Shown here in pieces: positions 2,656 to 24,964 of a DNA stretch of 60,601 nucleotides. The stretch comes from Luteococcus sp. H101 (GTDB lineage Bacteria > Actinomycetota > Actinomycetes > Propionibacteriales > Propionibacteriaceae), in assembly GCF_038433155.1 (NCBI RefSeq), contig NZ_JBCDMW010000005.1, forward strand, positions 1 through 60,601, given 5' to 3'. The notes beneath the pieces were generated by a model. It saw nothing but the letters and a program-made list of their open reading frames with translations, ran no database searches and was not told where the DNA came from. The first letter of the stretch is position 1; every line of letters starts with the position of its first letter. A program made the position numbers and the translations under genes.

Positions 2656-3465
2656 GTGGCGGTGATCACCCTGGCCAGCGTCGCTGGGGCGCCCGGGGTC
2701 AGCACCAGTGCGTTGGGCCTGGCGCTGGCCTGGCCGCGCGACGTGCTGCTGGCCGACTGTGACCGGGATCCCGCGCAGACCATCCCGGCCGGCTACCTGC
2801 GGGGGACGGACCTGGGCGGCCGAGGCCTGGGCCAGCTGGCGGCGGTGCACCGGGAACACCGGCGCCTGGCCGAGGAGATCTGGCTGCAGACTGTGCGCCT
2901 GGACGGCGGGGAGCGGGACCGTCGCTTCCTGCCCGGCTTCACCCATCCCGGGGCGGTGGGCCTGTTCGGGCCCATCTGGCAGGAGCTGGCGGACTCCTTC
3001 GTCGCGCTGGGGGCCAGCGGAACCGACGTGTTGGTGGACGCCGGCCGGGTGGGGCGCGATGGCCTGCCCGGCCCGCTGCTGATGACCAGCGACGTGCTGT
3101 TGGTGACGGTGCGCAGTTCCCTGCGGGCGCTGGCCGCCCTGCGGCTGCACCTGCCGGCGGTGCAGGCCCAGCTGGAGGCCCTGGCCGCGCACGCCGAGCT
3201 GGCACTGCTGGTGGTGGGGCCCGGCAAGCCCTACAGCGGCGCCGAGATCGAGAAGCAGTTTGGTCTGCCGGCGCGCTACTCGATTGCCTGGGAACCCAAG
3301 CAGGCAAGGGTCTTCAGCGATGGCGCGAAGCCCTCACGCGGTCTGGCGGGCGGATCCCTGGTCCGCAGCTACCGGGCGTGCTCCTCCCGGCTGGCCGAAT
3401 CCGTGCAGCGTCGCACCGAGGTGGTGGCCGGGACCCGGCCCAGCGTCGAGTGGGGTGCGCGATGA
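2656..3465 (+). CDS. tadZ: CpaE/TadZ-like ParA-family protein with degenerate Walker A (helicase/secretion-neighbourhood CpaE-like)
   Basis: VAVITLASVAGAPGVSTSALGLALAW in place of a canonical P-loop. It sits between cpaB and tadA. GTG start at 2656 (alternative GTG at 2647), overlapping the cpaB stop. Confidence 0.55.
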   Translation: MAVITLASVAGAPGVSTSALGLALAWPRDVLLADCDRDPAQTIPAGYLRGTDLGGRGLGQLAAVHREHRRLAEEIWLQTVRLDGGERDRRFLPGFTHPGAVGLFGPIWQELADSFVALGASGTDVLVDAGRVGRDGLPGPLLMTSDVLLVTVRSSLRALAALRLHLPAVQAQLEALAAHAELALLVVGPGKPYSGAEIEKQFGLPARYSIAWEPKQARVFSDGAKPSRGLAGGSLVRSYRACSSRLAESVQRRTEVVAGTRPSVEWGAR

Positions 3466-4637
3466 GCCGTCGCGTTGCCGAACCCGCGCCCGCCCTGGCC
3501 GACCTGCTCGGGCAGTTGGCCGGGCCGAGCCCACAGGTCCGGGTGCGGCCCGCCCGCGCGGACACGAGCGGCCAGGCCGCCCCCTATCCGGCCACCGGGA
3601 CGGACCAGCCCGGGGTGGACTGGGACGTCGTGGTGCAGCTGCGGCGCCGCGCGTCGGAGCAGATCACCGAGGCCAGCGAGCACTTCAGCGGGGAACGCGG
3701 CCGGCTGATGAAGCCGGACGACCGGCGGATGATGGGGCGATCGGTGATCCGCCAGGTGGTGCGGCAACATGCCGAGATCCTGGCGCACGAGGGCCAGGCG
3801 CTGTGGCCGATCGAGCTGGAACAGGCCTACGCGGCGGCGGTGGAGAATGCGATCTTCGGCTACGGCCGCCTGCAACCGCTGTTCGAGATCCCCGACGCCG
3901 AGAACATCGAGATCCACGGTTGGGACTCGGTGATGGTCCAGTATGGCGACGGGCGACGGGAGGCCCACCCGCCCGTCGCGGACTCCGACGAGGAACTGGT
4001 GGAAGCCATCCGCTTCCTCGGGGAATCGGCCTCACCCAGCCGTCCCTTCGACGACGCGCACCCGATGATGACCCTGGCGCTGGGCGAACGCTTCCGCTTG
4101 CACGCCATCGGCTTCGGGTTGAGTTTCCGGCCCAGCATCATCATCCGGCAGCACATCCTGACCCGGGTCAGTCTGCGTCAGCTGGCGAACGGCGGGATGA
4201 TGCCGCTGGAGGTGGCCAGGCTGCTGCACGACGCGGTGCTGGCCCGCAAGTCGGCGGTGATCTCCGGCGACCAGGGGGCCGGCAAGACCACCCTGCTGCG
4301 CGCCATGATCAACGCGATTCCCACCACGGAACGCTTCGGCACCCTGGAGACGGACTACGAACTGCTCACCCACCTGCAGCCCGGCCGCAAGAACATGCTG
4401 GCCCTGCAGGCCAAGGTGGGCCTGGGGGAGCGGGCCGCCGACGGCAGCCGGATGGGCGAGTTCAGCATCAGCGACCTGATTCCGGAGGCCCTGCGGCAGA
4501 ACCTGTCCCGACTGGTGGTGGGCGAGGTCCGGGGCGGCGAGGCGGCCGCCATGTTCGAGGCCATGCAGTCGGGCACTTGCAGGCGGAAACTAGCCTCTCG
4601 AATCTCCTGCCAAGAGGGAGGACCGGCAATACAGTGA
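3462..4637 (+). pseudogene. tadA: tadA/cpaF pilus ATPase, 5' portion, interrupted by insertion of a mobile element after codon ...AMQSG (4574)
   Basis: Walker A GDQGAGKTTLLRAM is present, followed by ...GEVRGGEAAAMFEAMQSG. The ORF then reads 20 unrelated codons into element DNA and stops at 4637. The missing CpaF C-terminus (GSLSTTHS..., 'His box') is found at 24614 onward. Confidence 0.85.
4556..4600. other. attL junction of integrated element (host tadA arm / GG core at ~4572-4573 / element arm cacttgcaggcggaaact)
   Basis: Host coding sequence ends ...atgcagtcggg. The element arm that follows is the imperfect reverse complement of the arm at attR (aggttccaaatgcaagtg), matching 14 of 18 positions. 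Confidence 0.6.
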
Positions 4638-4641
4638 GGCC

Positions 4642-5430
4642 ATGCCAGCTCCCCCGTGGTTCGTGGACCAGCTCGGCTGGAAAGCCTTGGAGGCCAAGAG
4701 CCAACCCATGTCGCAGGACCTCTTCGGAATCCCAAGGGCCCCCAACCTTGCCGACGTCGCCAACAAGCCGAGCCTCCGGCTCGGGGCGGCCATGCTCGAG
4801 TCGCTATCGGTCAGGAGGGGCGCATCCCCTGTTTCCTCCGGAAAGCCTGGCACGTTGCTGGAGGAGGGAATCCGGTCAGACCTCGCTGAGACCCTCGCGG
4901 CGCTGGAGCCCAGTATCGCTTGGGGTGTCACGCGCGGCGGAACCGTGGAGCGTTTCGCCCAGTACCAGCACCTAGCCAAGCTGAAGGACTTGCTCGCGGC
5001 ATACCCTGACATTCCCATGGCGATGGGCAAGGACTACCAGATCAAGACTGACGTGATGGTCTCCGTGCCGGACAAGACCGAGCCTGGCCAAGACATCCTT
5101 CACGCGGCCGTGTCGTCGAAGTTCACGATCCGGTCTGACCGGGTCCAGAACATCCGATTCGAGTTTGCCACGCTGCTGCGCACTAGGCAGGGGCGGGCAC
5201 CGCACTTGGTGGTCGTGACGGGCGAGCCATTGCCCAGCCGTGTCGCAGCCATTGCGCAGGGCACGGGTGAGGTCGATGCTGTGTACCACCTGCTCTTCGA
5301 TGAAGTCTCGGATGCCGTCACGGCCCTCTTCCCGGCTGGGGCGAGCCAGCGCCGGACGTGGGAAGAACTGGTAGAGCGCCAGCGGGTGCGGCCCTACGAG
5401 GAGCTGGTCCTAGCCTTGGTGAGTTCATGA
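4642..5430 (+). CDS. type II restriction endonuclease, NgoMIV/Cfr10I family (predicted GCCGGC-type)
   Basis: The segment HAAVSSKFTIRSDRVQNIRFEF...RAPHLVVVTGEPLPSRVAAIAQGTGEVDAVYH closely resembles my recollection of the NgoMIV catalytic region (SxK...E with downstream PH-VVVT-EP-PSR-I-LGTGE-D-VYH). An upstream PD is present (VMVSVPD). RBS gtgagg lies before the ATG. Confidence 0.55.
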   Translation: MPAPPWFVDQLGWKALEAKSQPMSQDLFGIPRAPNLADVANKPSLRLGAAMLESLSVRRGASPVSSGKPGTLLEEGIRSDLAETLAALEPSIAWGVTRGGTVERFAQYQHLAKLKDLLAAYPDIPMAMGKDYQIKTDVMVSVPDKTEPGQDILHAAVSSKFTIRSDRVQNIRFEFATLLRTRQGRAPHLVVVTGEPLPSRVAAIAQGTGEVDAVYHLLFDEVSDAVTALFPAGASQRRTWEELVERQRVRPYEELVLALVSS

Positions 5431-6149
5431 CCGGTCAGTTGTTCGAACCCACGGCCGGGGGTGGCCTTGGCTTCTGCCACGACGCTATGCCCGGGTTGCT
5501 CCCAGCGGGCTACCACGGACCATTGGTGGTCGCCATCGACTCCAATGTACTGATCGACCTGTACGAGTTTGGCACCCGGATGGTGGAGGACAGCCTTCCC
5601 GAGCCCCCAGAGGTTCCGGCCTCGAGGGCAGGGGAGCTGGAGGCGATCGCCAGCATTCTGGACTTGTGGCTCATCAGGGACATCCGGCTGGTCACGACGC
5701 CACGGATCCTGACTGACGCCAAAGCCAATCCCTCGCGGCTTGCCCGCCGGAGGCAGGACATCGAGCACCTGGCTCGTGCACTGGCCTTCCAGCTCGAGGA
5801 CTGGGAGGAGCCGTTTCCGCTAAAGGCGCCGGAGCCCTCGTCGCCGCCGACTGTGATTGGGGCCCGGGGCGAGGCTGACCGGCAGCTCGTGGAAGAGGCA
5901 GCTGCGATCGGGGCTCACGTTTTCCTGACTCAGGACAAGCGCTTGCGGCGACCTGTTTCCATCCCAGATGCCGCGACCCAGGTCCTCTACCCGAGCGAGC
6001 TGGCGGCCACGCTGGCGGGGGCGCGCGTCACCCACTTCTTCGGCGGCATCTGCGGTGGCAGTGACTGCCCCTACCCGGATTTCAGCATGCCCGCCCCGGA
6101 CCTGGGCCGGTACGTGCTGCTGGGCCTGTTTGCGCCAGCGCCTGCGTGA
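5427..6149 (+). CDS. PIN-domain nuclease-like protein, translationally coupled (ATGA overlap) to the restriction endonuclease gene
   Basis: VVAIDSNVLIDLYEF (PIN beta1 with Asp), later acidic residues, and the C-terminal AAIGAHVFLTQDKRL PIN-like motif. Confidence 0.45.
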   Translation: MTGQLFEPTAGGGLGFCHDAMPGLLPAGYHGPLVVAIDSNVLIDLYEFGTRMVEDSLPEPPEVPASRAGELEAIASILDLWLIRDIRLVTTPRILTDAKANPSRLARRRQDIEHLARALAFQLEDWEEPFPLKAPEPSSPPTVIGARGEADRQLVEEAAAIGAHVFLTQDKRLRRPVSIPDAATQVLYPSELAATLAGARVTHFFGGICGGSDCPYPDFSMPAPDLGRYVLLGLFAPAPA

Positions 6150-6531
6150 TACGGGCAGCGCATGCCATGGCATCCTGCTTCACCTCGAAGTCCCAGAACC
6201 GTAGGACGGTCCACCCCATGGCTTCCAGCGCGCCGTTCGCTGCCTTGTCACGCTCCTGGTTCCTGGCGATCTTCGCCTTCCAGTAGTCGCTGGCCGCCTC
6301 CGGGTGCCAGTGGTCCGGGTGGCCATGCCAGTACGCGCCGTCAACGAACACGGCCACCTTTCGCCCCACGAAGGCGATGTCGGGCCGTCCTGGCAGGTCC
6401 TTGCGGTGAAGGCGGTAGCCCGGTTGCCCTGAGGCGCGAAGCGCTGCCCGCAGGGCCAGTTCCGGCTTGGTGTTGCTGGACCTGATGGCCCTCATGACGC
6501 GTGAGCGTCCTTCGGGGCTGAGGTGGTCCAT
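6082..6531 (-). CDS. vsr: very-short-patch repair endonuclease Vsr
   Basis: SRVMRAIRSSNTKPE, LPGRPDIAFV, VFVDGAYWHGH, YWKAKIARNQERD and MGWTVLRFWD all align with E. coli Vsr motifs. The start is 7 nt downstream of the dcm stop. Confidence 0.8.
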   Translation of the reverse strand: MDHLSPEGRSRVMRAIRSSNTKPELALRAALRASGQPGYRLHRKDLPGRPDIAFVGRKVAVFVDGAYWHGHPDHWHPEAASDYWKAKIARNQERDKAANGALEAMGWTVLRFWDFEVKQDAMACAARITQALAQTGPAARTGPGPGRAC

Positions 6532-6538
6532 GGCGGGC

Positions 6539-7537
6539 CTACTGGAACAGCAGCTCGGGTTCCTGGGCCCGGGCGGAGTTCTGGGGAGGTTCCGTGTCGA
6601 GGCGCGCGTTCAGGGCCTTGGCGATCTGGGTGCCGACAGCTGCGGCGACAGGCGGCGGGAAGGCATTGCCCACCTGGCGCCACGCGGCAGTCTTCGGGCC
6701 CGAGAACTTCCAGTCGGGCGGGAACCCCTGCACCAGGGCGCCCATCTCGACGGTCAGGCGCGGCGTGCCGGTGAAACCCGCCTCGGGTGCCGCCGGGGCG
6801 ATCGTCTTGCCGTCGACGCCCAGCTGGGCCCATGCCTTGCGGGCCCGGGTGGGCCCAAGGTCGGGGCCGCCATGCTTGTGCGAGCCCCCGACAAGGGTCG
6901 GGGCGATGGCGTTGGCCTGTCGGGCCCACTCGCTGGCACCCTCCCAGCCGTTGCTGGACATCAGGTCGAACAGGAGCTGCCCGACCGTGCGGGCTGGCTT
7001 CCGGGCAGGCTCGGGCCACGTGAAGTAGGCGTCCCACGGGTCCTTGATGGCGACCATGACGACGCGGGGGCGCAGTTGGGAGACGCCGAAGTCGCTGGCG
7101 TGCAGCAGCTTCCAGTGGGGGCGGAACCCCATGCTGGCCAGCTCGCGGGAGACCTCGTCGCGGAACCCCTCGAACTGCGGGTCCAGCAGCCCCCGGACGT
7201 TCTCGATCATCACGGCGCGGGGATCGGCCTGGCGGATCAGCTCCAGGGCGCGCGGGAACAGGTTGCGCTCGTCGTCGGCGCCCAGTTGCTTGCCAGCCTT
7301 CGAGAACGGGGGGCATGGCACGCCGCCTGCGAACAGGTCGACCTTGCCCTTGAAGGACTGCGCCGACCACTCGTTGAGGTCCATCTGGAGGGTGTTCCAC
7401 TGGGGCCGGTTCTGCCGCAGCGTCTCGCAGGCGCGTGCGTCCATCTCGACGCACGCGAGGTGCTTGAACCCCGCCGCCTCAAGGCCAAGCGCCTGGCCCC
7501 CTGCTCCGGCGCACACCTCTACGGACGTGAGTGGCAT
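6539..7537 (-). CDS. DNA (cytosine-5)-methyltransferase
   Basis: Motif I VCAGAGGQALG, motif IV GGVPCPPFS, motif VI IENVRGLL and motif X QVGNAFPPPVA. GGAGG RBS upstream of ATG 7537. Confidence 0.85.
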   Translation of the reverse strand: MPLTSVEVCAGAGGQALGLEAAGFKHLACVEMDARACETLRQNRPQWNTLQMDLNEWSAQSFKGKVDLFAGGVPCPPFSKAGKQLGADDERNLFPRALELIRQADPRAVMIENVRGLLDPQFEGFRDEVSRELASMGFRPHWKLLHASDFGVSQLRPRVVMVAIKDPWDAYFTWPEPARKPARTVGQLLFDLMSSNGWEGASEWARQANAIAPTLVGGSHKHGGPDLGPTRARKAWAQLGVDGKTIAPAAPEAGFTGTPRLTVEMGALVQGFPPDWKFSGPKTAAWRQVGNAFPPPVAAAVGTQIAKALNARLDTEPPQNSARAQEPELLFQ

Positions 7538-7565
7538 GGTCGTCCTCCTCTGTTTGGCTCATTCT

Positions 7566-7732
7566 TGCACAATGCCGGCGTGCTGGAAGCAATAATAGCA
7601 GATACTTCCTATTATTTCTAGGGTGCGCGGACAGTGAACGGCCTAGCCAATCGGGAAATTCTGGGTTCTTTCTTGGATTTCTCTGCAGGCCTCGACGGGA
7701 GCCCGGAAAGACTAAAAAATGCCGGCGCGGGA
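7566..7732. promoter_or_regulatory. AT-rich intergenic region between the methyltransferase gene and the upstream nuclease gene; two copies of AATGCCGGCG (containing GCCGGC) and an 8-bp inverted repeat AATAATAG/CTATTATT
   Basis: Direct repeats at 7571-7580 and 7718-7727, and the IR at ~7590-7615, were read from the sequence. AT content is unusually high for this genome. Confidence 0.35.
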
Positions 7733-8656
7733 TCAGAACAGCAAGCCGTGCGGGGCGGGCCTGGCAGGCTCGTCCCTGGGCAGGCTCAGCCAGTCGCCCG
7801 GCCCCAGCGCGAACCCGGCGACGGCGGCCCGCTCTCGGTCCTCCAGCCACTTGCCGCACAGGAGGTCGGCATTGTGCTCCGCGAGCACGAGGGCCTTGAC
7901 CTCCCGGGCCCGGCGCAGCGGGTCGTCACGGTTGGCGCAGACAGTCAGGATGGCATGCCTGGGAATCACGGTCCCGGGCAGGAACCCGAACAGCCGCGTG
8001 AGGCGGCGTGCCTGGCCGGTGCCCGGCTCGAAGACCAGGTCACGCTCGTGCGGCTCGAGGTCCCGCAAGGGGTTGTGCGGCAGGGCCGACCAGGGGATGA
8101 CAATCATGCCGAACCGGTCCAGGGCTGCTGCGCGGATCGTTGTCTTCCGGTCCTGGTTGCGGCCGGCGTTCAGCCACGCGTGGTGGGTGCGCATGAGCTG
8201 CACCTGGAACCGGTCATGGCGGAAGTCGATGCGGACCAGCAGGCACAGCTGGCACTGGGCTTCCTGCGGAATCGTCCACGTGCGTGCGACCGTGACCTTG
8301 ATGTCGACCGGGACGCCCTCGATCCACGTGTCCAGCGGGCCTCTCTTCTCGAGCCCCAGCGCGGACAGGATCCGGTACTGCGCCTTCGTGCCGACCGAGC
8401 TGCGCTCGTCGGAGTCGACCTCCGGGTCGTTCAGGTCGAAGCGGCCGGTGTGGGCGCCGTCCAGCACGTACTGGATGCTGTCGTCGAGCGCAGCGGTCAT
8501 CGCGACCGGGACTGCAGGCCGGGACAGCCACGCCCGCACGGCCTGCAGCTGCGCGTCATCCGCCGGGTCCTCGAGGACATGGCCATCGGGGACGGTCCCC
8601 CGCCGGGCATCTGGCTGGCACCAGTCGCCCGGCTGGGCAATCGCGTCCGACGTCAT
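7733..8656 (-). CDS. PD-(D/E)XK nuclease, possibly NaeI-like type II restriction endonuclease
   Basis: GPLDTWIEGVPVDIKVT gives D-x9-D-x-K, the spacing reported for the NaeI active site. The gene is on the same strand as, and immediately upstream of, the C5-MTase. Start is ATG 8656; a GTG at 8662 is also possible. Confidence 0.35.
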   Translation of the reverse strand: MTSDAIAQPGDWCQPDARRGTVPDGHVLEDPADDAQLQAVRAWLSRPAVPVAMTAALDDSIQYVLDGAHTGRFDLNDPEVDSDERSSVGTKAQYRILSALGLEKRGPLDTWIEGVPVDIKVTVARTWTIPQEAQCQLCLLVRIDFRHDRFQVQLMRTHHAWLNAGRNQDRKTTIRAAALDRFGMIVIPWSALPHNPLRDLEPHERDLVFEPGTGQARRLTRLFGFLPGTVIPRHAILTVCANRDDPLRRAREVKALVLAEHNADLLCGKWLEDRERAAVAGFALGPGDWLSLPRDEPARPAPHGLLF

Positions 8657-8808
8657 GCGCACACGCTAGCGCCGGCACCGCGGCCTAGCCGAGCGGGGTC
8701 CGTTGCTGGAACCAAAGACTTGGCTGTGAAAACGGCACGTTGCCATCGCTGATCATCTAGGGTGCAAGTAGAGTGCAACTTTCCGCTTGTCGATGGTAAG
8801 GATCTGCG

Positions 8809-9636
8809 ATGAACAAGCCCTTTGGGCTTTCGGGCGAGCACTACACGCTGGATCGCCCTCCGGCAGTGTTCAGCGTCTTTGAGGTGCGGTACGGCGAGGG
8901 GCGCGAACACATCAACCTCCAGGCGGGTTACGACCTTCAGGAGTTCATGTCCAAAACCTTTCCTGGCGGAACGTGGAAGGTCGAGAAGTCCACGTGGCAG
9001 GAGGCCCAGGTGGAGCTGACGCCCCAAGGGCCCCGCCAGCAGTCCTACTCGGAGGTCGGCGTCCGCCTCACAAGCTCGGAACTCTCCTGCGAGATGACAT
9101 TCTTCCCTTCTAGGGCGGCGGTTCAGGTGAGCCAGTACACGCGCTGGAGTACGTCACTGAAACCACTGGTGAGCGCGGCCGTGCTGGCTGTCGAACAGCT
9201 GCTCAAGCCAGTGGGACGGGATCGTGTGGGGTTGCGATACGTGAACAACTTCCAGGACCAGAAGGCCGTGACACCCGGCTTCTGGGACGGCAAGATCGAG
9301 CCGTCCCTGCTAGGACCAGTAGCTGGCGGCCCGTTCACGGGCCAGCTGCGTGATGCGCAGAGCCAGCTGGTTCTCGACTTGGGAGGTGGCGCCGGCGCAG
9401 TACTACGGCACGGGCTGCTCGCCTCACCTGCCGCGCCTGCAAGCGTGGGCTACCTGCTGGACATCGACACTTTTGACGAGCACAGCGCTAGGTTCGATGC
9501 GGAGGATGTCATCACGCGGGCGGAAGTGCTCAACCGCAACGCAGCCGAACTGTTCCAGAGGAGCCTGACCGAGCGTTTCTCGGTGGCACTCGGCAAGCGC
9601 AAGGTTGAATCGCAGGGGAATGGAGACATGCAATGA
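8809..9636 (+). CDS. TIGR04255-like family protein (uncharacterised)
   Basis: N-terminal PAVFSVFEVRYGEG and the later RVGLRYVNNF match the remembered TIGR04255 signature. Good RBS (aagga). It is the first gene of a three-gene overlapping operon. Confidence 0.45.
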   Translation: MNKPFGLSGEHYTLDRPPAVFSVFEVRYGEGREHINLQAGYDLQEFMSKTFPGGTWKVEKSTWQEAQVELTPQGPRQQSYSEVGVRLTSSELSCEMTFFPSRAAVQVSQYTRWSTSLKPLVSAAVLAVEQLLKPVGRDRVGLRYVNNFQDQKAVTPGFWDGKIEPSLLGPVAGGPFTGQLRDAQSQLVLDLGGGAGAVLRHGLLASPAAPASVGYLLDIDTFDEHSARFDAEDVITRAEVLNRNAAELFQRSLTERFSVALGKRKVESQGNGDMQ

Positions 9637-10313
9637 CCGCTGCAGTGCTGACCCGTACACGAACGGGTAGTTTCCATCCTGACCCCTATGCCGGGTGTGG
9701 GGCCCTGGTCTCCCACACGGGAATCCGCTACGAGTCCGTCCCCGATGTCAATTTCAGCGGCCGGCTCTTGCGCATGGACTTGATCTTCTCCACAACGGGA
9801 GAGACCTGGGTGGGTGAAGCGCCGCCGTCGGAGATCGGCGAGGATGAGGCAATCACGGTCCCTGCCGTGGTCGCCATTGAAGAGGCCGCGCAAGCCCTGG
9901 GGTTGCCCGTCAAGTACCTCCGCGAGGGTGCAGGGATCAGTCCTCGCACGTTCCATCACTGGAAGAAGACGCCGGCTGTGCAGCCGCGTGTATCGAGCCA
10001 AGCCGATGTGTGGGCCCTCATGGACACGCTCGAGACCCTGAAGGATCTCGTGGACGGGGACCTCGGGCTCTGGCTGAGGGCCGACACGGCCCGAATGCGA
10101 TTGCTGCGCGGAGGGGACTTGATGGGCCTCGTACGCGAGGCAACTCGCCGCGAGAGCTTGCGCAGCAACCGGTCTCACTTTGAGGAAGCGATGGCGGTTG
10201 GCTTCTTCGTCGAGCCCAAGGAAGCACCTGGCCCCGTTGGGCCCCGCCCTGTGGTTCGCGCCCGGAGGGCCGCCAGGGGTCGCGTCGTCCCAAGGGAAGG
10301 ACAGGGGGCGTGA
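9633..10313 (+). CDS. hypothetical protein, coupled (ATGA overlap) to the TIGR04255-like gene
   Basis: ORF with ggaga RBS and a 4-nt start/stop overlap with the preceding gene. No domain recognised. Confidence 0.4.
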   Translation: MTAAVLTRTRTGSFHPDPYAGCGALVSHTGIRYESVPDVNFSGRLLRMDLIFSTTGETWVGEAPPSEIGEDEAITVPAVVAIEEAAQALGLPVKYLREGAGISPRTFHHWKKTPAVQPRVSSQADVWALMDTLETLKDLVDGDLGLWLRADTARMRLLRGGDLMGLVREATRRESLRSNRSHFEEAMAVGFFVEPKEAPGPVGPRPVVRARRAARGRVVPREGQGA

Positions 10314-11230: not shown

Positions 11231-11309
11231 CGAGACCGTGCAGTCGAGTGCGCTAGGCACGTTCACGCAATGCCCATCCCTGTCGCCGTTCGTGCTCTAG
11301 GCTTCAGAC

Positions 11310-13090: not shown

Positions 13091-13111
13091 CCCCAGAGGC
13101 ACAATGGGGAC

Positions 13112-13336: not shown

Positions 13337-13367
13337 AACTGTCAGTGCCGTCCGCCACGATGGCGCC

Positions 13368-15902: not shown

Positions 15903-15930
15903 AGGCCCAGCGTAGGAGGCGGCAGGCAGG

Positions 15931-16926: not shown

Positions 16927-17013
16927 GACAGAAGGTTAGTTGCTCCCTGATGTCCTGCTGTGGCAAGCGACTTTCGCACCCCGGAACCCCTGCCTCACTG
17001 AGACGATCCGGTC

Positions 17014-17682: not shown

Positions 17683-17703
17683 AGCCCAGCAGTCTGACAG
17701 GAC

Positions 17704-18303
17704 CTACAGCGAGTACTCCCACCCGCCCTCGAAGGTGTCCTGTGTGAGACGCAGCCTTCCATTGGTGTTCTTGACGTCGATGACCACCCACCCCTTGCGG
17801 TGGGTGGCTTTGTCCAGCTGAACGGGCAAGGTCTCGGCCTCGTTCAGGCAGCTGTAGGCGTTGCCGCTGGTGCTGTTCTCCTCGATCCCGTCAGGCCCGA
17901 CCACCGACCACTGGTTGGTGGTGAAGTAGTTCACGTCCTGCTTCAGCAGGGCAGGGGTGGTCTCCACGTCCATGTAGATGCCCACGTAGTGCCCGTTCGC
18001 GGGCTTTTCAGCATAGTCGGTGGTGCACTTGATGTCCTTGACGATCTTGTGGACCGTGAACGTGACGATCTCTTTGCCCTCCGAGGTGGTCATCCCGCCG
18101 GCATCGCCGAGCTTCTTGACCATGTAGCCGTCCGCATTCGTACTCGGCTGGGTTTCGGTCCCCGCGTTGGTCTGTTCCGCCGACGGCACAGGGGCAGTGG
18201 TCGTCGGGGTTGCCGCCGGAGATGGCGCAGGCTGATCCTGCCCACCGCACGCGGATGCAGCCAAGACGACAAGGGTGAGCAAAGCAAATTGGCGGGGCTT
18301 CAT
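17704..18303 (-). CDS. lipoprotein, DUF4352-like
   Basis: MKPRQFALLTLVVLAASAC lipobox. Start at ATG 18303, so the 261-aa ORF is an over-extension. Confidence 0.5.
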   Translation of the reverse strand: MKPRQFALLTLVVLAASACGGQDQPAPSPAATPTTTAPVPSAEQTNAGTETQPSTNADGYMVKKLGDAGGMTTSEGKEIVTFTVHKIVKDIKCTTDYAEKPANGHYVGIYMDVETTPALLKQDVNYFTTNQWSVVGPDGIEENSTSGNAYSCLNEAETLPVQLDKATHRKGWVVIDVKNTNGRLRLTQDTFEGGWEYSL

Positions 18304-18537
18304 GCGGCTGACACCTTCCGGGGTTGATCGTCTCAGTTGGTCACATGACAGCATCTCGGGTCTTGTTGGTCCAGAAGGCTCGCGGACTCGGCTGACGTCA
18401 TTCTGCTCAAAGGGACGGACGCCGGTCACTGAACGCGGCACCGTCATCTCCTTGAGGTCGGTTGAGCATGAACCCGGTGTCGTCCGCACAGGCCACCATC
18501 CACGTGCCCGTGTCGCCTGGACCCAAGCGCGAACAGC

Positions 18538-19683
18538 TCATGAGCGGAAATCCACCCGCGGTACAGGGGCAACGGCATGCCAATGCATGGCGCGGGAAGC
18601 CGCGGCAAGAGGTTCCACGTACGGGTCCTCCTGCCACTCCTCGTGGCTAAGGCGGGGCACTGGCCCGACCACCCGCGGAACCTTGAGGGACGCTGCCCGA
18701 AGGGCGGCGGCTTGGCCGCGGGCCCACAGCACGAACTGGCTGCTCGCCTCTTGCACCCCGTGGGCCACCAGGGCGTCCAGGTAGGCGTCGAGGTCCCGGG
18801 CCTCGGCCCATTTCCGGGCATGGGCCGCCAGGGGCTGCTGCCACAGTGCGTAGTCCAGCTTGGCGGTCACGTTCTCCCAGATCCGGTCTGTTGCCGCCTT
18901 GTTGTCGTCGATCCGCTCACGCTCGGCACCCGTGGCCTGTTCGGCACGCTGCGCTGCTTCCTCGACGAGACGCAGGACCTGCGGGATGTAGTGCTCCAAG
19001 GGCGTGCGCGGCCGCTCCTGGAAGATCTGGGTGCGGCCGCCGTCGCGGACACGGAAGGCAACGATGCCGTTGTCCTGCCACACCGTGTCCGGGGCTGGCC
19101 GGAAGATGCCTCGCTCGTCCGGCGGGGGTGCCTTCATGCGCTTCTGCATGGCCCCGAGGCGGACCGACACCGAACCTTGGCCCAGTTCCAGGACCATGAC
19201 GAGTTCTCCGGCGTAGGCCTGGCCGCCAACGATGGTGCGCTGCTCGGGCTGCGGCCACGGCTTGACGGTCATGCCGTTTGCTTCGGCCGAGACCGCCAGC
19301 TTGTGGACCGCCAGGATCGCCCGTGTCCGGGCAGCATCGTCGTCCGGCAGGCAGACCGGGTTGAGCTGCAGGAGCCGCGCGGCCTCGTGCAGGTCCTCGG
19401 GGGCCACCACTGGCTCGGGCTCGGGCCCTGGCTGGGCACCGGCCTTGTGCCGCGGCTGCTTGGCGCGGCGCTTGTGGGGCGTGGCCCGAAGCTCTTTCAC
19501 GTACCGGCGCCCCGCGGGCGTGACAGTGACCTGGTACCCGCCGGCCTTGCTGACGCTGACCAGCCCGCGGACCTGAAGCGCGCTGACGCTGATCTTCCAC
19601 CCGGGGGTGGGCTCCGGGTCTGGCGACCCGTCGGCCAGCCACAGCAGCACCTTGCGCTGCAGCTCGTTCGGTTCGGTGTGCAT
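18538..19683 (-). CDS. hypothetical protein with N-terminal winged-helix-like segment
   Basis: Start chosen at ATG 19683 (MHTEPNELQRKVLLWLADG) with a ggagagga RBS. The long upstream extension of the 663-aa ORF has no support. Confidence 0.4.
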   Translation of the reverse strand: MHTEPNELQRKVLLWLADGSPDPEPTPGWKISVSALQVRGLVSVSKAGGYQVTVTPAGRRYVKELRATPHKRRAKQPRHKAGAQPGPEPEPVVAPEDLHEAARLLQLNPVCLPDDDAARTRAILAVHKLAVSAEANGMTVKPWPQPEQRTIVGGQAYAGELVMVLELGQGSVSVRLGAMQKRMKAPPPDERGIFRPAPDTVWQDNGIVAFRVRDGGRTQIFQERPRTPLEHYIPQVLRLVEEAAQRAEQATGAERERIDDNKAATDRIWENVTAKLDYALWQQPLAAHARKWAEARDLDAYLDALVAHGVQEASSQFVLWARGQAAALRAASLKVPRVVGPVPRLSHEEWQEDPYVEPLAAASRAMHWHAVAPVPRVDFRS

Positions 19684-20052
19684 GGTGGTGGTCCTCTCCC
19701 CGGCCTGTCCTGGTCGAGAGGCTACGTCGAGCCCTGGCCCCAGCGGAAGGCCTGATGGCCTTCTGGCTTGCTGTTTCACCTCATAACCAAAACCCCAATC
19801 AGGGCAGGTTTCCCGCCGTTCGGCCGGATGTTGAACCACGGCGCAATGCGGTGCATCAACTCGCATGCACTCGAGTGGACCACGGGCCGCGCGCCGTCCC
19901 ATGCAGGGGTTTGAAGGGCCGAAAAAGCGGCTCTTCTCACGCAAAACCGCTCCATCCCACAACAGATGGTTCAATCCGGGCCACCTGGGGGCCGTATGGG
20001 TGCGGTTGCGTGACCCAACTGAGCCGAGACCTCGGCAGAGAGAAACATCGAG

Positions 20053-20562
20053 ATGACCAGCAACACGACCGGTTGGGGCAAGAACACCCAACCCCACTCC
20101 CGTGGTCACTTGGACCACATTGAGCGTGAACTGGGCCTGGGGGTTGCCAATACGGTGCACCGCCCTGACGGCCTCGCGTACCAGGCCCGGCGGGAGGGAG
20201 ACCATCCCGTTCCCTCCGTGGCCGAACTGGCGGCACGCATCGACGGGGCCCTCAACAACCTGAACAACCTGTGGCTCGTGGCCGACGAGCTGCAGAGCCA
20301 GTTCCTGGAGGTCCAGGACGTTGTCAACGGCTTCTTGAAGCACGGCGCACCGCCCCCTCCGGAGGTCACGGTGTTCACCGTCAAGCAGGCCTGCACCCAT
20401 CTGGGAGTGAGCAGGACGACACTCACCAGGCTGCGCAAGCAAGGGCTGCCGTGCTTCACGCTGGGGGAGGGCACCGCTGCGCGCCCGCGCTTCCGGCGAG
20501 ACGAGCTGGACGCCTGGATCGCCAAGCACCAGCCGCGTCGCACGATCGGTGGCCAGCGATGA
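20053..20562 (+). CDS. xis: excisionase/MerR-type HTH protein (Xis-like)
   Basis: C-terminal FTVKQACTHLGVSRTTLTRLRKQGLPCFTLGEGTAARPRFRRDELDAWI. Its stop overlaps (ATGA) the integrase start. Confidence 0.5.
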   Translation: MTSNTTGWGKNTQPHSRGHLDHIERELGLGVANTVHRPDGLAYQARREGDHPVPSVAELAARIDGALNNLNNLWLVADELQSQFLEVQDVVNGFLKHGAPPPPEVTVFTVKQACTHLGVSRTTLTRLRKQGLPCFTLGEGTAARPRFRRDELDAWIAKHQPRRTIGGQR

Positions 20563-21803
20563 AGCGCGCGAAGGCGAAGGCTGGCGAGATCATCCCCCGG
20601 TTGCAGCAGGACGGCCGCTGGCGCACCAAGGTGACCATCGGCACCGACCCGCTCACCGGCAAGCCGCGCAGGCGTGACGTCTACGGCGCCACCTCCGAGG
20701 AATGCGCCCTCAAGGCCCGCAAGCTCCTGGACCGTGTCACGCACCACGGCATGAACTCCGTGCCCCGTGGCCGCGACCTCACCGTGTCGCAGTGGATCGA
20801 CCAGTGGCTGCTGGCCAGTCGCGAGACGCAGGTTCTGCGACCCAACACCCTGTCCGGGTACGAGTCGATGTGCCGGATCCACATCGTCCCCATGATCGGC
20901 AACATCCCGCTCAACAAGCTCAGCACGCAGGATGTCCACCTGATGCTGACCGCCACTGACTCCGAAGGCAATCCGGCGATGTCCGCGGCGATGCGCCGGC
21001 ACGCGCACAAGGTGCTGTCGGCTGCGCTGGCCGAGGCCGAGCGCTACGGCCACGTCGACACCAACGTCGCCAAGCTGGTCCGCACGAAGCGGCCCCGGGA
21101 GCCCGAGGTGGTGCCACTGTCCGTCGGCCAGGTCCGGCAGGTCCTCTCGCTGGCCCGGTCGCGGGACGAGGCCGCCCGCTGGCAACTGGCACTCGTCCTG
21201 GGCTTGCGCCAGAGCGAGGCCTTGGGCTTGCGGTGGCAGGACATCGACCTGGACAAGGGCCTGATGCACGTCTCTCGCCAGCTGAACCGGCGCAGGTGGC
21301 AGCACGGCTGCGACGTCGAGCACGACTGCCCAGGCACCCCCTCGACGTGCCCGCAGGCCCGTCGCCTCGATGAGCTGGCCGAAACCAAGACCGACCGGAG
21401 CGTGCGCACCATCACCTTGCCGGAAGGCGTGGTGGCAGACCTGCGGCGCCAGCGCAAGGTGCAGGACCGCCAGCGACGCCGCGCCAAGGACCGGTGGGTG
21501 GAGAAGGACTTCGTGTTCACCGGCCGGTACGGCAACCCGGTCAGCCAGCGCGTCGACCAGCTGGCATGGCGTGACCTGCTGGTGGACGCGGGCGTGCCGC
21601 ACATCCGCCTGCACGATGCCCGACACACGGCAGCGACACTGCTGGTGGCGCTGGGCACCCCGCACGTGACCATCATGGAGGTCATGGGCTGGTCGCACCT
21701 GGGCATGATCACGCGCTACACGCACCGCGTCGACGACATGCACCGCCGCGCGGCAGACGGCATGCAGCGGCTCCTCGAAGGGGAGATCTCGCGCTCGCTG
21801 TGA
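20559..21803 (+). CDS. int: tyrosine-type site-specific integrase
   Basis: SAM-like N-terminal region. Catalytic region with RLHDARHTAATLL (HxxR) and MITRYTHR (Tyr). Confidence 0.85.
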   Translation: MKRAKAKAGEIIPRLQQDGRWRTKVTIGTDPLTGKPRRRDVYGATSEECALKARKLLDRVTHHGMNSVPRGRDLTVSQWIDQWLLASRETQVLRPNTLSGYESMCRIHIVPMIGNIPLNKLSTQDVHLMLTATDSEGNPAMSAAMRRHAHKVLSAALAEAERYGHVDTNVAKLVRTKRPREPEVVPLSVGQVRQVLSLARSRDEAARWQLALVLGLRQSEALGLRWQDIDLDKGLMHVSRQLNRRRWQHGCDVEHDCPGTPSTCPQARRLDELAETKTDRSVRTITLPEGVVADLRRQRKVQDRQRRRAKDRWVEKDFVFTGRYGNPVSQRVDQLAWRDLLVDAGVPHIRLHDARHTAATLLVALGTPHVTIMEVMGWSHLGMITRYTHRVDDMHRRAADGMQRLLEGEISRSL

Positions 21804-21827
21804 AATGTCGCCGCATGGCACAAGGTC

Positions 21828-21990
21828 ATGAGCGACATTCGGAGCGGCAAGGACCCGCGCAAGGCTGTTGACGACTGGATCGCGGACTTCGTGGCCCGCG
21901 GCCCGCAGGACCTCCCGGAACCTGCGGGCCGCATCCTGCGGCGCGCGGTGGCCGAGGCTAAGCAGAAGCGGGGCCGTCGTGCGGCGTGAG
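21828..21990 (+). CDS. possible small basic ORF (53 aa, below ORF-track cutoff)
   Basis: ATG at 21828 reads MSDIRSGKDPRKAVDDWIADFVARGPQDL... to a stop at 21990. Weak support. Confidence 0.15.
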
Positions 21991-22012
21991 GCGAAGAGCA
22001 TCCACACCAAAA

Positions 22013-22072
22013 GATGCAAGCAGTGAAGAGCAATGCTTGCATCCCCGACACTGTCTACGCATGAAATGCAAG
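22013..22072. promoter_or_regulatory. 10-bp perfect inverted repeat GATGCAAGCA-N11-TGCTTGCATC plus a third ATGCAAGCAT copy, upstream of the P63C/Bro-like gene and downstream of int
   Basis: Read at 22013-22043 and 22063-22072. Operator-like, or an attP remnant of a nested element. Confidence 0.35.
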
Positions 22073-22084
22073 CATGGAGGATCA

Positions 22085-23065
22085 ATGCGTGCTCAAGCAG
22101 GGGAAGAGCAACAGGCCGTGACAGGCCGGAGGAAGGGCGGGGTAGCCAGGGCGCGAAGCCTTACCCCCGAACGACGAACACAGATCAGCAGGGAGGCCGC
22201 CAAAGCGCGGTGGGACATGAAGGAGGCTGTCTGCGGCTCAGCCGAACGGCCCCTCGCGATTGGGCCCGCGAAGGTGGAGTGCTACGTCCTTGAAGACGGC
22301 ATCCGGGTACTGACCCAGGCGACCTTTCTTGAAGCGCTGGGCCGGCATCGCAAGGCGAACACGCGACGCGAGGATTCAGGCCTTCCACCGGTGTTGCAGG
22401 GGCAGGCGATCCGGCCTTTCATTCCCGAGCGAGCCTTCGAAATCGCAGGCACAGTCACCTTCAGGCTTCCCACGGGAGGTCGTGCCAGCGGTTATAACGC
22501 GGAGCTGCTCCCGCTCGTCTGTGAGGCGTACCTGGCCGCGCGAGAGGCCGGCAAGCTTCCCTACAACCAGTTGCACGTCGCCCAGCAGGCGGAAGTGCTG
22601 ATTCGTGCCCTGGCCAAGGTCGGCATCATCGCCCTAGTGGACGAAGCCACTGGGTACCAAGAGGTCAGGGAACGTAACGCGCTGGCACGCATCCTCGAGG
22701 AGTACGTAGCAAGCGAGCTCCAGCCATGGGTCCCTACGTTTCCCGATGACTTCTACCGGGAAATGTTCCGCCTGCGTGGTCATGGCCGCCCCGAGTCGCT
22801 GTCCAGGAGACCCAGCTACTTCGGCAACTTGACCAACGACATCGTGTACGAGCGCCTGGCGCCGGGGGTGCTGGACGAACTGAAGCGGTCAACACCCCGC
22901 TCATCAGCCGGGCGGCGTATCCGTAAGTTTCATCAAGGCCTGACTCCGGACAAGGGACACCCCAAGCTCCGGGAGCACCTCTCCTCGGTCGTGACCATCA
23001 TGAAACTCAGCGACTCTTGGGACGACTTCACGACGAAGTTGGATCACATCCACCCCAAATTCTGA
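22085..23065 (+). CDS. phage-associated protein, Bro-N/KilA-N or P63C-like
   Basis: GGAGG RBS before ATG 22085. N-terminal KVECYVLEDGIRVLTQATFLEALG resembles Bro-N/KilA-N-type DNA-binding domains. Confidence 0.4.
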   Translation: MRAQAGEEQQAVTGRRKGGVARARSLTPERRTQISREAAKARWDMKEAVCGSAERPLAIGPAKVECYVLEDGIRVLTQATFLEALGRHRKANTRREDSGLPPVLQGQAIRPFIPERAFEIAGTVTFRLPTGGRASGYNAELLPLVCEAYLAAREAGKLPYNQLHVAQQAEVLIRALAKVGIIALVDEATGYQEVRERNALARILEEYVASELQPWVPTFPDDFYREMFRLRGHGRPESLSRRPSYFGNLTNDIVYERLAPGVLDELKRSTPRSSAGRRIRKFHQGLTPDKGHPKLREHLSSVVTIMKLSDSWDDFTTKLDHIHPKF

Positions 23066-23135
23066 GCAGTGTCAATCGTGCCGTCCGAACAGAGTGGCCC
23101 AGTCGGCCTGCGACTCGGAGGGGCCGAGGATCTCC

Positions 23136-24575
23136 TCACATTCGAGGCGTCTTCCATTGCAGTTCCAGGGAGTCAGGGTTGAGGATCCGCTGGCGCCAGT
23201 CCAGGTAGGTGGCCTCCTTGGTGCGGGCGGGCCTGATCTTGACGACGAGCAGGGCGTCGATGACGTTGCGCCGCTCGTCCTCGTCCAGGTCCTCCCACAC
23301 GAGTGCCGGGTCGGTGGCCTGCTGCAGCTTCGCCAGGGCGGGGGAGCCGAGGGCTGGCAGCTGTGCCTCCAGGGCCTCCAGCTGGCCTGCCAGGCGCTGC
23401 TGGCCGGATTTCAGCTGCTGCAGCGTGATGTCGCCGTCGGTGAAGGCCTGCACGAGGCCGTCGCGGCGCTGGTTGACCTGGGCCATCTGTTCCCGGATGG
23501 CGGCGGTGTCGGCCTGCTGGCCGCTGGGTGCCAGCTGGTCCAGCACGTGCGGCTGGGCGAGGTACTGCAGGACGATGCGGGTGACGAAGTCGTCGATCGG
23601 GGCTGCTTCCCGGTAGGCATGGCCGCCCTTGCTGGAGCACCGGTAGCGGCGCCGCCCGTTGCGGGTGCCGCCGGAGTGGATGACGGCGTCGCACACAGCG
23701 CACCTGGCCACGCCTGACAGCAGCCCACGGGACTGCGCAGGCCACTTGCGTTCCGGGTTGTTCAGGATGGCCTGGACGGCCTGCCAGGTGTCCAGGTCGA
23801 CGACCGGTGGCCATTCGCCGCGCACCGGGTTGCCGTCGGCATCGGTGAGCACCTGGCGCTGGTAGGAGCGGATACCGGCCAGGCGGGTGGTGCGCAGGGT
23901 GAGGCCGACGATGCTGCCGGTCCACGGGTTGCCTGCCTGTGGCGTGACCAGGCCTTGCGCGTTCCAGGCGCGGGCAATTCCTGCCAGTGAGCCGCCATCC
24001 AGAATGGTCTGGTAGGCGCGGCGGATGGCCTCGGCCTCGGTCTCGCGGATGGTCAGCCCGTCGGGTTCGTACCCGAAGCAGCGCCGGGTGCCGAAATGCC
24101 TGCCTTGCAGCGCGCGTTGCAGGTTGGCGCGCTTCTGCCGCTCGCCTTTCTGCTCGGACTCGTACTGGGCGACCGCGGCGAGCTGGCGGGCCACCATGCG
24201 CCCGGACGGGGTGGCCAGGTCGAGGGGGCCAGCCATGCACGCGATGGTGGGCACCGAGCGCGGCTGGCAGACGGCGATGTAGCCCTCGAGGTCGGTGGTG
24301 CGCCGGTACAGCCGGTCGGTGTGCCAGACGAGGACGACGTCGACCTGCCCGTCCTCGATGGCTTTGAGCAAGGCCTTGTAGCCGGGCCGGGGCGTGGAGC
24401 TGTAGGCGGAGGTGTCGTTGTCGCTGTAGACGGCCACGACGTCATGGCCGAGTTCAGCGGCTTTGGCGCGGCAGTCCTCCTCCTGCCTAGTGACGCCGGC
24501 CTTCTCGCCGGTGGGGTCACGGCTGATGCGCGTGTAGATCGCCGCTTTGCCCATGTAGGAAGGATATGCCAGCAT
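23136..24575 (-). CDS. large serine recombinase (resolvase N-terminal domain, recombinase domain, zinc ribbon, coiled-coil)
   Basis: AAIYTRISRD...GVTRQ catalytic N-terminus, the Cys cluster CAVCDAVIH...RYRCSS, and a C-terminal coiled coil. The start (ATG 24575 or 24554) abuts attR. Confidence 0.85.
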   Translation of the reverse strand: MLAYPSYMGKAAIYTRISRDPTGEKAGVTRQEEDCRAKAAELGHDVVAVYSDNDTSAYSSTPRPGYKALLKAIEDGQVDVVLVWHTDRLYRRTTDLEGYIAVCQPRSVPTIACMAGPLDLATPSGRMVARQLAAVAQYESEQKGERQKRANLQRALQGRHFGTRRCFGYEPDGLTIRETEAEAIRRAYQTILDGGSLAGIARAWNAQGLVTPQAGNPWTGSIVGLTLRTTRLAGIRSYQRQVLTDADGNPVRGEWPPVVDLDTWQAVQAILNNPERKWPAQSRGLLSGVARCAVCDAVIHSGGTRNGRRRYRCSSKGGHAYREAAPIDDFVTRIVLQYLAQPHVLDQLAPSGQQADTAAIREQMAQVNQRRDGLVQAFTDGDITLQQLKSGQQRLAGQLEALEAQLPALGSPALAKLQQATDPALVWEDLDEDERRNVIDALLVVKIRPARTKEATYLDWRQRILNPDSLELQWKTPRM

Positions 24576-24584
24576 GCCATGTTG

Positions 24585-24625
24585 GACATAGGTTCCAAAT
24601 GCAAGTGGGGGCGGGCAGCCTCAGT
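24585..24625. other. attR junction (element arm aggttccaaatgcaagtg / GG core ~24608-24609 / host tadA arm ggcgggcagcctcagt)
   Basis: The element arm is the imperfect reverse complement of the arm at attL. Host coding sequence resumes in frame as ...GAGSLSTTH. Confidence 0.6.
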
Positions 24626-24964
24626 ACCACCCACTCCCATTCCGCCTCCTCGACGATGGACCGGCTGGCCTCGCGGGTGGCGCAGGGCGGGGTGGTCAGC
24701 ATCGACGAGGCCTATCGCCAGATTGCGCACAACATCCACCTGCTGGTGCACGTGCGGCTGGTGGACGACACCTGGCGGGGCGGCACCAGGAGCCGCCACG
24801 TCTCGGAGGTGCGGTTGCTGACCGGCGCGCTGGAGGCTGGCCGGCCGGTCACCCACCTGATCTACCAGGCCGCCACCGCCAGCCAGCCCGCCGTCTGGCA
24901 TCCCGACCCGGCGCTGGCCGACGAGCTGGCCGAATTCGCCGGTGCCTTCGAGAAGGCGACGTGA
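24608..24964 (+). pseudogene. tadA: tadA/cpaF 3' portion (C-terminal ~118 codons)
   Basis: GSLSTTHSHSASSTMDRLASRVAQGGVVSIDEAYRQIAHNIHLLVHVRLVDD... matches the CpaF C-terminal region. Its frame is continuous with the 5' portion once the element is removed. Confidence 0.8.

Follow-up and report, generated by a model that had tools for sequence, protein, structure and literature searches.

We analysed 60,601 nt of DNA from Luteococcus sp. H101 (contig NZ_JBCDMW010000005.1, positions 1 to 60,601; hereafter the window), in which tadA, the gene for the Tad pilus ATPase, is interrupted by an element of about 20 kb. This element is very probably a mobile genomic island that was integrated by its own large serine recombinase (LSR) at a GG crossover within the codon for Gly371 of tadA. 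A first-pass annotation of the window, made from the sequence alone, had proposed that an LSR-type element interrupts tadA, and intact orthologues, synteny and a clade of related LSRs at the identical codon supported this. The same annotation had likened the element to regulated gene switches, a proposal that fared less well (see below). The features on which the argument rests are as follows:

3462..4573, + strand: tadA 5' fragment, residues 1-370 and the first two bases of the Gly371 codon
4548..4603, no strand: attL; the host B arm ends at 4571, core GG at 4572-4573, P' arm CACTTGCAGGCGGAAACTAGCC from 4574
4574..24609, no strand: integrated element, 20,036 bp with one core copy counted
23136..24554, - strand: LSR, 472 aa from the homologue-supported start; the open reading frame (ORF) extends to 24575
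24578..24633, no strand: attR; the P arm ...GGTTCCAAATGCAAGTG ends at 24607, core GG at 24608-24609, host B' arm from 24610
24610..24964, + strand: tadA 3' fragment, the last base of the Gly371 codon, then AGSLSTTHSHS..., to the stop codon

An Exact Insertion within tadA

The similarity of the tadA reading frame to CpaF/VirB11-family ATPases ends after ...GEVRGGEAAAMFEAMQSG, i.e., ...EAMQSG at 4573, and the frame then runs through 21 element codons to a stop at 4637. Residues 1-371 of TadA matched 3462-4574 with 100% identity (tblastn), and both Walker A (GAGKTT) and the GEVRGGE Walker B region lie inside this 5' fragment. The 3' fragment, AGSLSTTHSHS...VHVRLVDD...KAT, holds the His-box region and the C-terminus. 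That the C-terminus resumes in frame beyond the element, as proposed at first pass, was supported by orthologue alignment, which set the start of the 3' fragment at 24610. The rebuilt TadA has 488 aa and matched the Pfam family T2SSE (E-value 1.5e-20).

Excising the 20,036 bp in silico with one GG kept gave GEVRGGEAAAMFEAMQSGAGSLSTTH, the same as the intact TadA motif of two Luteococcus loci (L001 and L004). The join across one GG reads ATG CAG TCG GGG GCG GGC AGC CTC in frame, and its translation is identical to that of the two loci, in agreement with the earlier proposal that an intact tadA is obtained by joining the host arms. The rebuilt 100-nt site aligned without gaps to five intact orthologues (80-87 of 100 nt), i.e., to tadA lacking the insertion. 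In blastn comparisons, four Luteococcus genomes were collinear with the window up to 4568-4574 and resumed at 24599-24620, the comparator sequences being uninterrupted between these points. TadA was also searched for in species-representative genomes, and the best 80 of 178 loci were examined: in all of these best 80, the junction residue was covered by one continuous segment, at up to 87% identity. Together with the rebuilt window gene they yielded 81 aligned sequences spanning the junction. Because intact orthologues are continuous, relatives are collinear without the segment, and the rebuilt site is gapless, 4574..24609 is an insertion, exact and without indels. Its removal in silico restores the empty site with no base gained or lost, as expected of conservative integration.

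It is scarcely credible that the split stems from a chimeric assembly or that tadA is naturally two genes in this lineage. The same contig arrangement, with an identical LSR, was present in two Luteococcus assemblies, with JBCDMX010000004.1 (GCA_038433195.1) matching essentially the whole window, and the junction anatomy is common to independent metagenome contigs. Related tadA genes are not naturally divided, given the continuity across the junction residue described above and a total of 1,733 full-length-type TadA homologues.

Attachment Sites and the Large Serine Recombinase

The left site, attL, reads ...ATGCAGTCG GG CACTTGCAGGCGGAAACT, i.e., ...CAGTCG-GG-CACTTGCAGGCGGAAACTAGCC, and the right site, attR, reads AGGTTCCAAATGCAAGTG GG GGCGGGCAGCCTC, i.e., GGTTCCAAATGCAAGTG-GG-GGCGGGCAGC. 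Compared outward from the GG, the element arms showed an inverted match at 8/8 of the first positions and at 15/19 positions overall. In a random control of two million position pairs drawn from the same window, the mean number of matches was 5.4 and the probability of at least 15 matches was 1.6e-5, so the inverted-repeat arms noted at first pass withstood a careful comparison. The host arms have only (T/G)GCA in common, at equal distance from the core. As GGG is common to attB and attP, the crossover dinucleotide is not fixed by identity alone; we chose to place the putative crossover on GG because it lies exactly midway between the perfect 8-nt inverted arms and because a related element (L085) has the same geometry.

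On this basis, the predicted 50-bp attP is GTTCCAAATGCAAGTG-GG-CACTTGCAGGCGGAAAC (junction CCAAATGCAAGTGGGCACTTGCAGGCGG), and the predicted 50-bp attB is GAGGCCATGCAGTCG-GG-GGCGGGCAGCCTCAG (junction GAGGCCATGCAGTCGGGGGCGGGCAGCCTCAG). The sites are of the kind used by LSRs: short, with imperfect inverted half-sites around a non-palindromic 2-bp core and without long direct repeats. No terminal direct repeats were found at the element ends, and no tRNA gene was found in the window. We also considered whether attB is the most conserved stretch of tadA, which proved unsupported: among the 81 aligned TadA sequences its conservation was 0.82 versus a mean of 0.715, which ranks it only 437th of 1425 alignment windows.

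The LSR is encoded antisense to tadA by the gene adjoining attR. Pfam domains Resolvase (PF00239, 1.7e-27, residues 11-159), Recombinase (PF07508, 9e-16) and Zn_ribbon_recom (PF13408, 3e-5; 24.8 bits, slightly below the cut-off of 25.3) were recognised, and the length of 472-479 aa, depending on the start, accommodates the C-terminal extension of large serine recombinases. The motif YTRISRD contains Ser18 (numbered from the ATG at 24575); Y14, R16, S18 and D20, as well as C292, C295 and C313, were invariant across 26 homologues. Residues 11-355 matched the 500-aa PDB entry 9iu2 'Integrase' (3e-17), which we take, from its length, to be Bxb1 integrase. The protein is identical to NCBI WP_342100521.1. 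Judged by its sequence, the LSR is intact, with every feature looked for in a large serine recombinase. The first-pass annotation had placed its start about 30 bp from attR. This agrees with the first ATG of the ORF (24575), which is 33 nt from the core, but not with the start supported by NCBI and by homologues (MGKAAIYTRISRD, 24554), which is 54 nt from it.

A scan with the sigma-70 consensus, which is weak evidence in a high-G+C actinobacterium, found no promoter-like site near the LSR start. Relatives of the LSR in isolated phages (Streptomyces phages) reached at most ~37% identity, and no full-length homologue with >50% identity was present among 68 viral loci. A search for a directionality factor near the recombinase, as suggested at first pass, yielded no conserved candidate: in an all-against-all blastp of element ORFs, no small gene was conserved with relatives, and a small ORF downstream of the LSR was common only to a subgroup of three related loci (L085, L087 and L165). 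The HTH_17 protein encoded at 20053-20562 is a candidate that could serve the LSR in this role; the partner of its gene is a tyrosine integrase.

A Clade of LSRs at the Same tadA Codon

LSR homologues were gathered from protein, viral and metagenome searches, and their flanks were then examined. All LSRs that were at least 51% identical to that of the window and had a readable flank were located at the same tadA Gly codon; they comprise 11 loci and no fewer than five distinct LSR types. In their TadA fragments, the break falls between AMQ[S/A]G and [A/T/P]G[S/T]LSTTH. These loci (L082, L164, L085/L086, L087, L166-L168, L090/L091, and L084 of Tessaracoccus palaemonis) belong to other Propionibacteriales and to related metagenome contigs. 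The complete 10,088-bp element of L085 has a GG core, inverted arms, an outer TAGACCCATGA motif common to the arms, and a TadA that can be rebuilt in frame.

Apart from the LSR, no gene was common to the window element and any other clade element (all-against-all blastp). Cargo varied from the defence island of the window to a 10-kb element (L085) and prophage-like early and immunity genes (L084). Because the codon is the same throughout the clade, the cargo is unrelated, and both orientations occur, sequence comparison identifies tadA as the dedicated attachment site of the clade.

The two orientations define two classes. In class A (window, L082 and the L090 group), the LSR gene lies beside the 3' tadA fragment and is antisense to tadA; in class B (L085, L087, L164, L165 and L084), it lies beside the 5' fragment and is co-oriented with tadA. 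The LSR-side arm is homologous in both classes, CAC..G....[C/T]TA[T/G]..CC, and on the LSR-sense strand class A elements have a CC core and class B elements a GG core. The polarity of serine integrase reactions depends on the central dinucleotide alone. The pattern fits a scenario in which, on one or more occasions within the clade, the core was flipped relative to the remainder of attP.

In class B, the ATG of the LSR is situated about 25 nt past the crossover, within the conserved outer arm motif (..TA[G/T]ACCC-ATG), as seen at L085 5955-6000 and around 9970-10003 of L087 and L084. The promoter of a class B integrase must therefore lie across the crossover, i.e., in host tadA if the element is integrated and at the far element end if it is excised. 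A start inside the attP arm thus implies that integrase expression depends on the integration state. Once integrated, a class B integrase gene would receive read-through transcription from the tad promoter; that of the window element would not.

At a further pair of loci (L162 385-6470 and L163), the genes after that of a 47%-identical LSR encode a small resolvase-type recombinase and the HsdR subunit of a type I restriction system. The contig ends before their target gene is visible; they represent another defence-type cargo in this LSR group.

Cargo of the Element

The G+C content of the element ranged from 0.59 to 0.70, as compared to ~0.70-0.76 in the flanking tad locus. Pfam was tried on ORFs across the element, and PHROGs and NCBIfam on those otherwise unassigned. 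The predicted genes are listed below; the LSR is given above.

4642..5430, + strand: NgoMIV-family type II restriction endonuclease (Pfam PF09015, 7.4e-40; PADLOC REase_II, 7e-30)
6082..6531, - strand: Vsr very-short-patch repair endonuclease (Pfam PF03852, 2.7e-24; PADLOC Vsr)
6539..7537, - strand: C5 cytosine DNA methyltransferase (Pfam PF00145, 9.6e-61; PADLOC MTase_II/DruM)
7733..8662, - strand: NaeI-family restriction endonuclease (Pfam PF09126, 3.6e-29)
8809..11230, + strand: three co-oriented genes without known function (8809-9636, TIGR04255 family; 9633-10313; 10310-11230)
11310-12557, + strand: NsnA / PD-T4-2_A-like GmrSD_N (DUF262) gene (Pfam PF03235, 6.9e-32; PADLOC NsnA, 1.1e-51)
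12554-13090, + strand: RiboL-PSP HEPN gene (PF18735, 5.9e-06; 26.8 bits, just under the Pfam cut-off of 28.4)
13716-14885, - strand: DUF218 protein (profile match)
15201-15902, - strand: HTH/HNH-repeat protein (profile match)
15931-16926, - strand: FRG-domain protein (PADLOC PDC-S15, candidate defence gene)
17284-17682 (+ strand), 17704-18303 (- strand) and 18538-19683 (- strand): three gene calls without named family matches
20053-20562, + strand: HTH_17 excisionase-like gene (Pfam PF12728, 8e-10; phrog_66 'excisionase')
20559-21803, + strand: tyrosine integrase, 414 aa (PF00589, 7.9e-22), its start overlapped by the HTH_17 gene
22217..23065, + strand: P63C-domain protein (phage-associated phrog_2384; weak anti-repressor-like match)

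Two restriction endonucleases, a C5 methyltransferase, Vsr, the NsnA-like and HEPN genes and the FRG-domain gene beside a recombinase amount to a defence island, with the defence function of these genes predicted from family membership. The genes between 4642 and 8662 form an unusual arrangement in which two endonucleases, NgoMIV-like on the + strand and NaeI-like on the - strand, surround a single C5 methyltransferase and Vsr. Both endonuclease families include cutters of GCCGGC, and we refer to the cluster as 'GCCGGC-type'. The NsnA-like gene and the overlapping HEPN gene (11310..13090) are a candidate two-gene defence system. The G+C content around them (0.59-0.60 at 11000-13000 of the window) was the lowest in the element, the remainder being at 0.64-0.70, which suggests a more recent acquisition within the island.

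No capsid, tail, large-terminase or lysis families were detected in the Pfam, PHROGs and NCBIfam scans; the HTH_17 protein gave a weak secondary small-terminase match. Pfam and NCBIfam likewise revealed no relaxase or type IV secretion system, FtsK-like Tra protein or replication initiator, as would be expected of an integrative and conjugative element, including the actinomycete type. The whole element had no megablast match in a plasmid collection or in 50,697 phage records. A prophage identity, which we considered, was rejected given the lack of structural, packaging and lysis families and of DNA matches to these phage records. Because no capsid, conjugation or replication genes are recognisable, the element looks like a non-autonomous, LSR-mobilised defence island, possibly a composite one.

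The earlier annotation had missed a second recombination module within the LSR element, the excisionase-like and tyrosine integrase genes at 20053..21803. Together with P63C and the unassigned genes (17284-23065), this module could be nested or a remnant; no repeats bounding it were found.

Integration, Mobility and Alternative Explanations

Under the explanation that we favour, the LSR would have driven recombination between attP and attB at the GG inside the Gly371 codon, and excision by the LSR together with a directionality factor would restore tadA exactly. The island would probably persist through a benefit to the host and move with outside help, and its excision would most likely represent occasional loss or transfer rather than a programmed switch.

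Several observations weigh against this explanation or limit it. An empty site in the same species did not turn up, as intact TadA from elsewhere was at most 87% identical over the full length or 91% over 90% of it. No excised circle was found either, and the exact 30-mer of the attP junction was not present in IMG/VR viral contigs. Current mobility of the element is therefore putative. The tyrosine integrase and excisionase-like gene inside the element mean that the island may be composite, and about one-third of the element genes, being without assignment, may hide a replication or transfer function. Finally, the tblastn search for a second tadA, which was negative, covered the window.

The first-pass annotation had gone on to compare the element with the gene switches skin/sigK, the comK prophage and the nifD element. 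In such a scheme, a signal from the host would switch on the LSR together with a directionality factor, excision would rebuild tadA so that pili are made, and re-integration might follow. We consider this unlikely. Precise in-frame reconstitution is indeed possible in silico, the LSR is intact, and its target is a conditionally used function; moreover, no stop or frameshift interrupts either half of tadA or the tad genes downstream, although a recent insertion explains this equally well. The arrangement in class B, with a co-oriented integrase that the tad promoter could drive, would also be favourable to a switch. However, restoration upon excision is uninformative on regulation because it is a property of all serine integrase insertions in ORFs, and the resemblance noted at first pass does not go beyond it. 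The element was missing from all five related intact loci examined, rather than being stably retained in the lineage, and was seen only in the two assemblies with identical LSRs. The unrelated cargo among clade members is that of circulating mobile elements, not of a fixed switch. In the window itself, the LSR is antisense to tadA and uncoupled from the tad promoter, its start had no promoter-like site in the sigma-70 scan, and no directionality factor conserved with relatives was detected by blastp. Nor did we recognise, with several genes unassigned, a replication module by which an excised circle might persist in a coccus that divides and does not differentiate. The element thus offers no support for a novel type of developmental gene switch.

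It is far less probable still that the internal tyrosine integrase made the insertion, or that two elements arrived separately with the LSR as a passenger. The complete pair of xis-like and tyrosine integrase genes beside phage-like P63C would agree with such an origin, but the element ends have only GGG in common in addition to the inverted arms, without the direct repeat of 10-50 bp that tyrosine integrases leave. Furthermore, the window has no tRNA gene, it is the LSR gene that adjoins the junction, and LSR relatives without any tyrosine integrase occupy the same codon. A tyrosine-integrase element nested inside the LSR island is possible. Integration of the island by its own LSR remains our preferred explanation.

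Probable Consequences for the Host Locus

The order of genes at the locus is a SAF-domain CpaB-like gene, a 277-aa gene without a Pfam match, tadA, tadB, tadC, Flp-like ORFs, tadE and a LysM/LPXTG gene. The part downstream of tadA is listed below.

24961..31101, + strand: remainder of the tad operon, apparently intact (profile matches, gene calls, collinear with intact loci)
24961-25848, + strand: tadB
25841-26764, + strand: tadC
27482-27943, + strand: tadE, with small Flp-like ORFs between tadC and tadE
27940-31101, + strand: LysM/LPXTG protein, 1,053 aa, last gene of the operon

The LysM protein occupies the usual place of tadG-like genes and has LysM repeats and a weak internal LPXTG-anchor match at residues 470-509, below the Pfam cut-off; L090/L091 and L244 encode a comparable LysM protein.

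The His-box region and the C-terminus are part of the conserved core of secretion ATPases. Because the insertion parts Walker A and Walker B from them, tadA is probably null while the element is integrated, and assembly of the Tad/Flp pilus is expected to be lost. The earlier suggestion that pilus production depends on excision is thus reasonable, with a 5' fragment that lacks the His-box region and the C-terminal 117 residues. The roles of Walker A, the Asp-box and Walker B have been described for the CpaF structure (PMC12019362). In addition, tadB and tadC would be severed from the upstream part of the operon. In practical terms, tadA will appear as a pseudogene or as two short ORFs in annotations of such strains, and strains with a split tadA are probably pilus-negative for a reversible reason.

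LSRs at DNA-Uptake Genes

LSRs at 37-47% identity to that of the window mostly adjoin a ComM N-terminus broken after ...GSxFDLA (12 loci), and one more (L161, 4780-5967) lies on the C-terminal side of the same comM site, with a ChlI domain match among the comM evidence. The comM loci are L089 (9721-10000), L161, L092, L160, L177, L178, L184, L189, L190, L094, L179, L197 and L200; the split reads ...KYGSAFDLA / IACALLAS..., and both orientations occur, as in the tadA clade. In Microlunatus (L088, 7570-19519), a 47%-identical LSR lies between a ComEA ORF, whose HHH_3 match ends at model position 49/65, and an intact comEC. The element that it heads (~8 kb) carries a capsid-family gene (PF05065) and resembles a small element of the phage-satellite type, at a third DNA-uptake locus.

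More distant LSRs (35-41% identity) were found at CpaF-type ATPase genes that are 32-35% identical to the window TadA: after the homologous ALNSG motif (L183/L196, 9443-10030), near Walker A (L110, L111 and L113), and between Walker A and B (L193, 118-465 and 8313-8870). From these positions, CpaF-type ATPase genes look like a repeated target of separate LSR lineages. Other LSRs at 40-47% identity (L172, L173, L174 and L181) are preceded by an intact gene that is unrelated. For the remaining relatives at 40-47%, the targets were not nameable from flank ORFs, and the competence theme is a lead, not a census.

The targeting of tadA might be explained by selection for sabotaging DNA uptake or a phage receptor, an idea compatible with integration of the island by its LSR and one that we regard as possible though doubtful. 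Blocking transformation would shield integrated elements from deletion by incoming DNA; alternatively, the loss of Tad pili would remove a phage receptor, in keeping with a defence island. The use of comM by neighbouring LSR clades, the position of L088 between comEA and comEC, and the hits in CpaF-type ATPase genes at other positions by more distant LSRs all point this way. The tad clusters of Micrococcus luteus, with the same gene order, have been studied as Flp pilus-dependent transformation machinery (PMC4322843), and inserting into competence genes has been described as a strategy of mobile elements (PMC4774983, PMC11441513, PMC12378983). Against it, neither natural transformation nor pilus-dependent phages of Luteococcus or Propionibacteriaceae were found in the literature examined. 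Conserved ORFs commonly serve LSRs simply as dependable sites, many unrelated elements have a hotspot in comM, and several LSRs at 40-45% identity lie beside unrelated genes. The conservation rank of attB proves it neither the most conserved site nor a function-driven one.

If the targeting is selected, the elements would disable transformation, or remove the pilus receptor, for self-protection. Only tentatively do we extend this to an actinobacterial LSR lineage specialised on the DNA-uptake apparatus (tadA, comM, comEA/comEC), with a possibly pilus-coupled integrase in class B. Were this true, Tad/Flp pili would be transformation pili well beyond Micrococcus, across Propionibacteriales, and class B elements, once integrated, would have their integrase under the tad promoter of the host and so create a pilus-linked switch. 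The lead to follow is a possible preference of mobile elements in Actinomycetota for disrupting genes of DNA uptake (tadA, comM, comEA/EC). The Tad/Flp system is left out of recent reviews on how mobile elements and competence conflict; that of 2025 sets the Flp/Tad pilus aside and does not mention tadA (PMC12378983).

Comparison with Known Systems

The comK prophages of Listeria, A118 and phi10403S, are large serine integrase prophages. The Luteococcus element resembles them in being an LSR element in an ORF related to DNA uptake, with short attachment sites, a 2-bp crossover and precise excision that restores the gene. They are, however, complete prophages with demonstrated regulated excision and an episomal 'active lysogeny', whereas neither phage structural genes nor signs of regulated excision were found for the Luteococcus element, and their LSR is only distantly related to that of the window. 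The topic of comK prophages is covered in PMC12378983.

With skin (SpoIVCA, sigK) and SPbeta (SprA/SprB, spsM), the element has in common an LSR at its edge and the in-frame reconstitution of a split gene. Excision of these two elements is brought about by sporulation regulators in the terminal mother cell, and SprB is the directionality factor of SPbeta. In contrast, the Luteococcus element is not conserved among relatives, no directionality factor was found for it, and Luteococcus is not known to have a terminally differentiating cell type. Structures of the SPbeta integrase are available (PMC11722253).

Bxb1 (groEL1) and the Mycobacterium abscessus MabI/MabJ prophages (PMC8092301) are closer in that actinobacterial serine integrases disrupt ORFs with very short cores; they differ in their target genes and in being full temperate phages rather than a defence island without morphogenesis genes. 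AbaR-type comM islands (PMC11441513, PMC4774983) likewise bring accessory cargo and consistently disrupt one gene of the transformation pathway, but they are Tn7-like transposons and not LSR elements. It is the sister LSR clades of the window LSR that use comM itself. A role of tadA in transformation is documented for Micrococcus luteus only (PMC4322843).

The LSR catalogue of Durrant et al. 2022 reportedly inferred attB and attP from integrated and empty sites, by the same logic as that used here. Full-text literature searches, which did not extend to the large computational LSR catalogues, found no report of tadA or cpaF as an attB or prophage target. The analysis adds a new predicted attP/attB pair for a serine integrase of Propionibacteriales. 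Orthologous integrases at 51-65% identity on one conserved coding site should be useful for studying the evolution of specificity and of crossover polarity, and possibly as parts for genome engineering. Serine-integrase elements inside ORFs were already known from Bxb1/groEL1, A118/comK, skin, SPbeta and the M. abscessus prophages; what is new is tadA as the target and its consistency across the LSR clade.

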